Positions 28,446 to 31,400 of a stretch of 64,000 nt of DNA are shown here, piece by piece. The notes beneath the pieces were generated by a model. That model made no database searches and was not told the origin of the DNA. It worked only from the letters and a program-made list of their open reading frames with translations. This DNA comes from Chiloscyllium plagiosum. Its lineage: Eukaryota. Location: contig NC_057719.1 in the NCBI RefSeq assembly GCF_004010195.1, forward strand, positions 16,290,892 through 16,354,891, written 5' to 3'. The first letter of the stretch is position 1. Every line of letters begins with the position of its first letter. The position numbers and the translations under genes are program-made.

Positions 28446-31400
28446 TCCCATCCTCACCTCCTTTTCTGAGGTGGAGCCCATCCTTTACCTTTGGGTCGAA
28501 TCTGCCTGCTTACCCTTCTTCTAGGACACCAGCACCACATCCTCTACGTTAGACACCGATGTGTGCTCACAGTACCAATTCCCCTTAGCTGATGATAAAC
28601 TGTTCCGCTCGGGCCTTTCTCCCAGGTCCAGTAATTCCCTTTGACCTCTAAACTCACGATTCATTATGGGCAACAAAGTTCCCTTATTTCGTTTGCGGTC
28701 ACTCCCTCTCTGGGCCTCAACCTTGCTGTTGGAGACATTCTGCCATTTGAATCTATCAGTCACTTGTGCGGATGGGGGAGTTAATATTTCTAATATTGCT
28801 GACCATCACTCCTTTTGGGTACATAGATCACCCCAATGGTGGTCCTTGGACATCTCCGACTTTTCCCTGCCTCCTGGCGTACCTCCACTCAGTGAAAAAT
28901 GTAAACGTCACATTAATGTAGTATAGGATCTTTCTGGATGTTCTGATATACTAAAGGCCCTGTTTGCCCTTTACTTAGGACGGAACTTCCCCATTAGGAT
29001 CTATGCCCTTGTTAAGGCAATGCTGGGTCTGTGCTTGCTGTTAAAGTGCTTAGTTTCCTTTGGCACCAGTCACTGAGCATCAGCCCTCACATTACACTGC
29101 CTGTGCTGGACAGCCATGTAGCCTGTGAAATGGGGGCCATGGTTTTTAATGCCCTGGTTAATACCGACCCTGCGCTCTGCGTTAGTCCACAATGGTTTTG
29201 GGGAGGATACTATTCTCTATGACTCCTCGTTAAGCTCATGCCATGGAACCCTCCATCACCATCAGCCTTCCACTGACCCCACCTCCTCCCCACCACCTGA
29301 GGTCTGGACAATATCCAAAACAGACATTGGGTTAACCTTGGTTGTTCCTGCCGTTATTCGCCTACAGGAAAATGTTACGCCCCTTAAAAAGGAAGCAGGA
29401 GATGGTCTCCACCCTGATTAAGTCCCTCTTGCAACAAGGTGTCCTTGTCCCTTCCCTTTCACCTTGTAACACCCCAATCCTCAGCGTTCCCAAGCTGGGG
29501 AGACCTGACCGGCGTCTATTTCAGGACCTTTGGTCCGTGAATGACATTGTTGCGCCCGTCCATGTCACCGTCCCTAACCCTGCCACCATCTTGGGTCAGG
29601 ATCCGGCTGCACACAGCTGTTTCACCAGCATTGATTTACAGCATGCCCTTTTTCTCTATCCCTCTACATATGGAGTCACAGTAACTCTTCATCTTCATTT
29701 TTGAAGACAGACAGCATACATGGACCCACTTACCACAAGGTTTTATCCACTCCCCCATCATTTTCTCTCAAACTCTCTGTGGTCAACTCCGAGACTTGGA
29801 AATCCCTGTGGGTTCTGCCCTGGTCCAATCCATGTATGATTTACCTTTAGCAAGTAATTCCAATGAAGCCAATAACACTGACACAAACTTCCTTTTAAAT
29901 ACGCTTAACTCCTTAGCTATGTCACCCCAACCAGTAAGTGAATCTAGTCAATCAGAAGTCAAGTTTTTGGATAGTCTATTGATCTCTCACCTAGGACAGA
30001 GTGCAACCTATCACTCTAACCTCTATCCCGGGAACGCCCAAACAGATATGGAAATTTCTTGGATTAATTAATTTCTGCAGGCAATGGATCCCGAATGCTG
30101 CTTGCCTTACAAAACTCCACTGGCCTCCCCCAATGCAACCTCATGATTCACTTCCAATTCTGAACAATTAAATGCATTTGAATCCTTAAAGGTTGCCATT
30201 TCTTCCCCACAGCACTGGGACGACCTTTATATGACCGACCCTTTTACCTCTATGTGGCCATTGCTGATGGCTGCACATCTGCCATCCTGACACAGATTCA
30301 AGGTGGCAGCACGAGACCCACGGTTTACTTATCAGCCGAACTCGACTCGGTCACCCTCGGGATTACCACCACGCCCACCCCTGCACCCAGATTCTGCCTG
30401 CCATTTACCTCATGGTCACCGCTGCAGTGAATCTGACCCTTCAGCAGCCTGTCACTGTGTACTCTTCCCATTCACAGCCTTCCTGCCGCCTCACCAGACA
30501 CAGTATCTGACACAGGCTCACCTTAGCAAATATGAGATAGCCCTGCATCACAACCCTCACTTGACCTTTGACTACTGCCCGACCATTAATCCTGCTACTT
30601 TCGTTACTCATCCTCCCGAAGAACTCTCCAAACCTCCTCATTCATGCCCAGAACTAAATCACTTCTTGACCAGCCTTCGTCAAGATTTAACTGATCTGCC
30701 CTTGGCCACCCCTGATCTTATGTTTTAAGTTGCCGGCTCTGCTTCAGTTCCTACGGATGGCAGACTCCTCTCCGGTTATGCTGTTGTCCCTGACTCTGAG
30801 ACTATAGAGTTGGCAGTATTGTATTCTGCTGTCTCTGCACAGAAAGCAGAACGTTTTGCCCTTAAGCATGCCTGCATTCTGGCTATGGACAAAGCTGCCA
30901 ATCTCTCATTACGCCTTCTGTGTAGCCCATGATGTTGAGACCCTGTGGGCTCAGAGACAGTTCCGCACTTCTGCAGGCACTCCCATCTCCAACACCGTGT
31001 ATATTGAAAACCTCTTGCGATCCATCCTTCTCCCCAAAAAGCTAGCTATCATCAAATGCCTTCACAACGGTAGTGCTGTTCCTGACGGGAACACAAGGGC
31101 CGACTTGGCAGCCAAGCAGACTGCAGCCTCACAACCCTGGGTAGCAGACACGGGTGCACATGCTGTGCCAGTTCTCCGTGCCAAAGGAGGTCCAGACATG
31201 TTCACCATTTTACAACTTCAGGGGGGCACCCCTGCCTCAGAAAAGGATATGTGGCAGAAACATTGTATATAATCCCCTGTCATGGGTCTCTGGCAAACCC
31301 TGGCTGGACAAACATGCATTCCAGAGACTCTTCTACCTTTACTCATTGACAATCTACACACAGACACTTACCTGGGAAAGGAGGGAATGTGTGCGCCCTT

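Follow-up and report, generated by a model that had tools for sequence, protein, structure and literature searches.

Between the protease and the reverse transcriptase (RT) of an endogenous retrovirus of Chiloscyllium plagiosum lies a stretch that is almost certainly a decayed 2H phosphodiesterase domain of the CNPase type, as carried by epsilon-like retroviruses at this position in Pol. The copy found in the window (the whole stretch of DNA that was analysed, 64,000 nucleotides) is a pseudogene and makes no enzyme.

The provirus and its insert

Judged from its sequence, the provirus is an old, broken, epsilon-like (class I) endogenous retrovirus (Table 1). Its parts follow the order gag-pro-RT-RNase H-IN and its RT is related to that of class I elements of fish, as in epsilon-like retroviruses. 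An RT tree with 50 rows places the window frame next to a Mobula element as its sister (SH-aLRT 90) and close to skate elements, the branch of the window frame being long and unsure; among the relatives that have a name, elements of skate and ray stand closest. The PBS-like stretch we take to be of the tRNA-Ser type; the window itself yielded no tRNA gene. A blastn search with 24501-25930 detected no second LTR copy in the window and no LTR pair.

The protease remnant reaches a score of 38 against the intact little-skate Pol P0005 (see below), a score that is also reached by 14 of 1000 shuffled sequences. RVT_1 matches the RT of the window with an E of 2e-4, which is under the curated cut-off. 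A SINE-like repeat (families D1 and D6; about 31690-31990) interrupts the integrase remnant, and the probable env is truncated by a LINE-like RT that starts near 34110 (RVT_1, E 2.4e-7). Within the LINE-like element in the probable env (34110-36600) lies a further SINE-like repeat (about 35640-35990).

The window contains a second LTR element, much younger than the first, at 50000-54870, with an LTR pair that is 97% identical over 783 nt. Its RT frame is open at about 51940-53220, the Ns of an assembly gap fill about 53224-53561, and its leader contains tandem 49-bp repeats (51063-51370); 5′ of the RT it apparently carries no gag, protease or 2H region.

Table 1. Parts of the endogenous retrovirus in the window. 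Positions are those of the window.
Feature	Position	Strand	Remarks
PBS-like stretch	25917..25934	+	
gag remnant, broken	27351..28033	+	tblastn match to skate Gag-Pol P0189, 30-33% identity; no Pfam match
Protease remnant, broken, weak match	28474..28790	+	pieces 30-38% identical to P0005, E 0.003-0.7
2H domain, first piece	28804..29013	+	first strand WWSLD at 28837; degenerate motif 1, His at 28909; stop at 28924-28926
2H domain, second piece	29016..29168	+	motif 2 His at 29088 and following helix; different frame
2H domain, last strand	29197..29262	+	first frame again; aligns to the domain ends of P0005 and P0007
RT and connection region, broken, several frames	29293..30695	+	31-54% identity to P0005
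RNase H remnant	30714..31116	+	42-47% identity to P0005
Integrase remnant	31399..32317	+	34-56% identity to P0005
Probable env remnant	32750..34100	+	env by position only; no Pfam match

A preliminary description of this DNA had reported about 140 extra codons between protease and RT. This number is correct, since the decayed protease motif (28525) and the RT-start motif (29293) are 256 codons apart in the window, compared to 103-139 residues in most of the related Pols in which this spacing could be measured (23 of 35). A long spacing of 238-314 residues was found in 10 of the 35, all of which match the domain profile, and the remaining two have spacings of 73 and 216 residues. These Pols were taken from the best 150 of 449 matches of the database search described below; 90 of the 150 have an RT-start anchor and 35 of these a measurable distance.

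The motifs are indeed located where the description had placed them, with WWSLD at 28837, the first His codon at 28909 and the second His codon, that of SPHITL, at 29088. A distance of 179 nt separates the two His codons, which puts them in different frames, a point that was absent from the description. The first and last pieces of the insert are in the same frame; its middle piece is in another, the frame changing near 29010 and again at about 29170-29200. Of the paired 2H motifs that had been proposed, motif 2 is intact (P-H-I-T-L, with Gly at His+15), but motif 1 does not read HxT/S: its His alone is kept, and a TAG stop codon (28924-28926) follows 3′ of it. The window's own copy does not have both motifs intact, and those that are left are in different frames. 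The earlier verdict that this copy is dead is in line with the degenerate motif 1, the stop codon and the two frame changes.

Homology to an intact skate Pol

With one frame of the window pol region as query, phmmer was run against 1.84 billion proteins and gave 449 matches at E ≤0.001. Among the best 150 of these the top match is an intact Pol of 1225 aa from the little skate (XP_055501356.1, here P0005; E 2.5e-47), followed by the Pol of WEHV1 and then by ray elements. P0005 contains WWSLD and two HxT motifs between its protease and RT, in a domain that spans about residues 121-262. The first piece of the insert (28804-29013) aligns to residues 121-177 of P0005 with 21 of 57 positions identical and a score of 91, compared to a mean of 21 and a maximum of 40 for 1000 shuffled sequences. 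This match is independent, because 28804-29013 was absent from the query that found P0005. For 28998-29168 the alignment to P0005 has 23 of 57 positions identical and a score of 108 (maximum of 1000 shuffles: 43), and 29016-29168 aligns to residues 179-229 with 22 of 51 positions identical (E 1e-9). Identity of the insert to P0005 is 37-40% in its two frames, and four wrong-frame controls scored 16-21, which is shuffle level. Window and skate are 28-43% identical in the 2H domain compared to 31-56% in the connection region, RNase H and integrase.

A profile made from the three skate and ray rows matches both pieces of the insert (iE 1.4e-6 and 2e-8). With all three profiles that were tried, the motif 2 stretch was the best match in the whole window. 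This includes the profile of the other 14 rows without skate and ray, where the match is weak (iE 0.25); the first piece was not among the top 8 matches of this profile in the whole window. The last-strand piece continues into the RT start and is weak by itself (iE 39).

It might be argued that the motifs arose by chance, in a spacer that is unrelated or degenerate. HxT/S motifs are common: the pattern HxT/S-hydrophobic occurs 222 times in the six frames of the window and is weak when taken alone. In addition, direct searches with window pieces gave nothing relevant. Pfam found only RVT_1 in five window translations, searches for homologues yielded nothing for the second domain piece (24 candidates) or for an RT piece (112 candidates), and PDB sequence searches with two window pieces gave 0 and 2 irrelevant matches. 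However, both halves of the insert match the skate domain far above shuffled sequences and in the right frames only, and the skate domain is predicted to fold as CNPase. The shuffle-controlled skate alignments and the result of the structural search refute the chance explanation, to which we give next to no credence.

Predicted fold

The window copy itself is decayed; the model was made from the natural intact domain of the skate Pol P0005, folded with 17 natural relatives. It has a pLDDT of 84.7 and a pTM of 0.73 and shows the two-lobed 2H fold; nearly all of its top structural matches are 2H proteins. Foldseek against the PDB gave 38 matches at E ≤0.001, and among the matches listed all are CNPase except one fungal Trl1. 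A structural search independent of Foldseek (48,161 chains) ranked CNPase highest (136 of 138 residues aligned, Z 12.9, rmsd 3.0), with a bacterial CPDase as runner-up representative (Z 6.5) and with rotavirus VP3 (5.9), Acb1 (5.7), penguinpox PDE (5.0), MHV ns2 (4.8) and AKAP18 (3.9-4.1) lower still. In a further comparison CNPase reached up to Z 13.4, goldfish RICH 11.4 and the fungal Trl1 CPD 10.9. The closest structural kin are not AKAP7, ns2, VP3 or Acb1 (Z 3.9-6.2). Because CNPase scores 12.9-13.4 against the skate model, well above the viral 2-5A/cGAMP phosphodiesterases (4.8-6.2), the domain is, according to this model, a 2H domain of the CNPase type and not of the coronavirus NS2/rotavirus VP3 type.

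The preliminary description had proposed a 2H phosphoesterase domain within Pol and had named a Foldseek comparison with 2H folds as a check. The model of the skate relative is indeed 2H, and the motifs in the relatives agree with it. The suggested functional kinship with NS2 and VP3, which cleave 2-5A, finds little support: the fold is of the CNPase type (Z of about 13 compared to 5-6), and this includes the helix after motif 2.

Sequence identity to CNPase is just 9-14% in the structural alignments. No curated Pfam 2H family scored above its cut-off in the 17 relatives or in the window; sub-threshold matches to LigT_PEase, 2_5_RNA_ligase2 and Acb1 (E 0.04-0.16) were obtained for 3 of the 17. 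A profile of the 17 rows found two PDB sequences at E 0.4-0.8, one of which is Acb1. Atlas feature matches score 0.83-0.84 and are taken as a lead only.

Motif 1 reads HxT in 18 of 22 relatives and motif 2 reads HxT/S in 20 of 26, leaving out P0189, which is a duplicate of P0005; the skate P0005 has both motifs. In CNPase, the loop 319-321 (beta5-alpha7) is followed by a helix (alpha7) that other 2H enzymes lack and that may determine stereospecificity, and Phe235 and Tyr168 hold the substrate (PMC4643303, in part). The skate model has a helix at 92-105 that begins at His2+11 and matches alpha7 by spacing and by overall superposition. The window and 20 of 26 relatives have Gly at His2+15, with G324 (H309+15) as its CNPase counterpart. 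Tyr or Phe is found at His1+5 in 12 of 22 relatives and may correspond to Phe235 of CNPase, and Trp10 of the skate model falls on CNPase 168 provided that the superposition begins without a gap. The domain corresponds to CNPase 160-376 only and is flanked by protease and RT; the N-terminal P-loop domain and the C-terminal prenylation motif of full host CNP are not present. As modelled, it resembles the catalytic domain of CNPase and not full CNP.

Occurrence in other retroviruses

The domain profile matches 27 of 154 proteins at iE <1e-3, 17 of which are in the alignment. The carriers that have a name include elements of skates, devil ray, wrasses, trout, catfish, pipefish, cardinalfish, a notothenioid and a mormyrid, as well as zebrafish cluster members. 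At least 23 related Pols are without the domain, which shows that it is dispensable. Presence and absence change at least seven times on the RT tree (50 rows), and some of the absent calls may be gene-model artefacts. P0022 apparently has two motif 2 regions (positions 39 and 493), perhaps due to a duplication or a joined gene model. Two domain-bearing retroviral Pols (P0084 and P0186) that carry bacterial labels in metagenome bins (Cetobacterium, Metamycoplasmataceae) are probably host DNA.

Three intact Pols of 1343-1363 aa (P0027, P0190 and P0192) keep the domain without its catalytic motifs: the first His is replaced and Pro stands at the Thr/Ser position of motif 2. That their domains are still 62-68% identical might point to a mainly non-catalytic role, either as a binding module or spacer in Gag-Pol or as a decoy for the host restriction factor CNP. 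Lentiviruses are restricted by host CNP, which binds Gag and blocks assembly of HIV-1 (PMC10761555, in part). However, both motifs are kept in most relatives, and in the motif-less lineage the domain drifts faster (pairwise identity 62-68%) than RT (79-83%), protease (74-79%) and RNase H (84-86%), which slow decay would fit too. We disfavour a decoy, since the captured part (CNPase 160-376) does not include the determinants of Gag binding; the antiviral determinants of CNP against HIV-1 are Asp72 and the C-terminal prenylation (PMC10761555, in part). We regard a mainly non-catalytic role as decidedly unlikely.

In the viral fold library BFVD, the best match to the skate fold is the Env protein of WEHV1 (Q9WHI8, E 3e-8, TM 0.79), followed by an unnamed entry of 1072 residues (Q2VF30_1) and by Env of WDSV (A4GTG3, E 4e-6, TM 0.71). 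The Pol of WEHV1 has no insert, although its Env matches the fold. WDSV Env has a cytoplasmic loop of 170 residues between residues 874 and 1045 (PMC3185748, in part). The domain presumably lies within this loop, which fits the 173 aligned columns, and both sites, in Pol and in Env, would face the interior of the particle. A possible relocation between Pol and Env is the most interesting lead.

Also in BFVD, the compact domain is matched by two stand-alone viral proteins without a name, each about 154 residues long (A0A516LHL6 and A0A516LSI7; E 3e-5 and 3e-4). Phage-rich clusters are seen among the Atlas matches, and small CNPase-like proteins may be present in phages too. One phage contig obtained in a scan of viral contigs was dismissed as a chance match.

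Proposed function

Pol domains of retroviruses are packaged together with Gag-Pol. We slightly favour the view that the domain is a virion-packaged enzyme, predicted to open 2′,3′-cyclic phosphates to 2′-phosphates. Made within Gag-Pol, it would be packaged in the particle and enter the next cell together with the replication enzymes. Its substrates might be RNA ends cut by nucleases, in the primer tRNA or in broken genome RNA, or free 2′,3′-cNMPs, and it might have originated from a captured host enzyme for cleaning up RNA ends or nucleotides. The retroviral dUTPases follow a comparable logic of captured nucleotide clean-up. The CNPase-like fold, the retention of the motifs in most relatives and a conservation like that of other Pol domains speak for an enzyme, whereas the low identity to CNPase (9-14%), the failure to pass Pfam, the dispensability and the three motif-less intact Pols speak against it. 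2H enzymes switch their substrate easily (PMC11410667).

Viral 2H enzymes have repeatedly taken the role of innate-immune antagonists (PMC11410667), and the retroviral domain might likewise destroy a nucleotide signal, namely 2-5A, or cGAMP that is present in the cell or enclosed in particles. Such an antagonist would fit the patchy occurrence on the RT tree (at least seven changes in 50 rows), as conflict genes often show, and the same superfamily is found among the fold matches. OAS and RNase L are present in elephant shark (PMC1845163 and bioRxiv 693333, both in part) and cGAS-STING is present in zebrafish (bioRxiv 693333, in part). However, the Z values of VP3, Acb1, penguinpox PDE, MHV ns2 and AKAP18 given above contrast with 12.9 for CNPase. 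Antagonism of 2-5A is not the general reason for keeping the domain, because teleost hosts are without OAS and RNase L (PMC1845163 and bioRxiv 693333, both in part), yet elements of wrasse, trout, catfish, pipefish and zebrafish retain it. Altogether, an antagonist of this kind seems rather unlikely to us.

Going beyond the packaged enzyme that we favour, it is possible, and we propose this tentatively, that a CNPase catalytic domain, captured and at work inside the particle, is needed by epsilon-like retroviruses all the way from cartilaginous fish to teleosts. The domain would have moved between two polyproteins and would be sited at the protease-RT junction of Pol in most lineages and, in the walleye viruses with a Pol lacking it, in the inner loop of Env. 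It might counter a host defence that is based on cyclic-phosphate RNA ends or cyclic nucleotides and is distinct from OAS-RNase L, and the skate/shark form might represent a minimal working CNPase.

Captured host enzymes are rare in retroviruses, and this CNPase-type domain is conserved from skates to teleosts. The physiological job of CNPase itself is debated. The compact, naturally intact skate domain makes the question of the substrate directly testable.

Relation to known 2H proteins

CNPase and fish RICH (2xmi, 1woj, 2i3e) have the same fold as the retroviral domain (Z 11.4-13.4), two HxT/S motifs and a helix after motif 2; the spacing of the Gly324-like position of CNPase matches as well, and that of the Tyr168- and Phe235-like positions may do so. 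In contrast to these proteins, to which it is 9-14% identical, the retroviral domain has neither a P-loop domain nor a prenylation site and is embedded in a viral polyprotein. The form found in skate, ray and shark is compact, with about 140 residues compared to 216 in mouse CNPase; from the first strand to motif 1 there are 11 residues in skate, 24 in the window and about 62 in CNPase. The fungal Trl1 cyclic phosphodiesterase (6u05; PF08302) is also similar (Z 10.9; Atlas feature match 0.83, a lead only) and heals cyclic-phosphate ends of RNA. It belongs to a kinase-ligase repair enzyme; in the retroviral Pols we saw no partner domains of this sort.

MHV ns2, rotavirus VP3, the poxvirus cGAMP PDE and phage Acb1 are members of the common 2H superfamily and, too, host-type enzymes in viral genomes. 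The LigT/AKAP7-like viral PDEs form another branch of 2H proteins (Z 4.8-6.2), and their immune substrates are not ascribed to the retroviral domain. In WEHV1 and WDSV, which provide the best viral fold matches, the domain is sited in Env instead of Pol, at a presumed position within Env.

In the literature searched, which had most subscription papers outside its coverage, we found no functional assay of the retroviral domain and no report of it from cartilaginous fish. PMC11410667 does not mention retroviruses, and PMC10835031 mentions neither CNP nor fish, teleosts or retroviruses. The first of the two parts of a paper on elephant-shark endogenous retroviruses (PMC4422223) does not mention the domain, and the portions covered of PMC5434554 and PMC7619455 add no retroviral case.

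A CNPase or macro domain is an occasional feature of epsilon-like elements in teleosts (PMC4977317, in part, citing Basta et al. 2009), and 2H domains are listed in 'the fish retrovirus' and in WDSV (PMC9503650, in part, citing Mazumder et al. 2002). The precedent in a fish retrovirus that was mentioned in the preliminary description does exist. The domain of the teleost epsilon-like retroviruses is 2H/CNPase-like too, and in the teleost Pols among the relatives analysed here it has the same position between protease and RT and the same motifs. The teleost insert has 165-200 residues compared to about 120-140 in the skate/ray type, and unlike the teleost elements the window copy is broken and has its nearest relatives in skate and ray. 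A domain of this kind is already in print for teleost retroviruses; what the window copy adds is range, not function.
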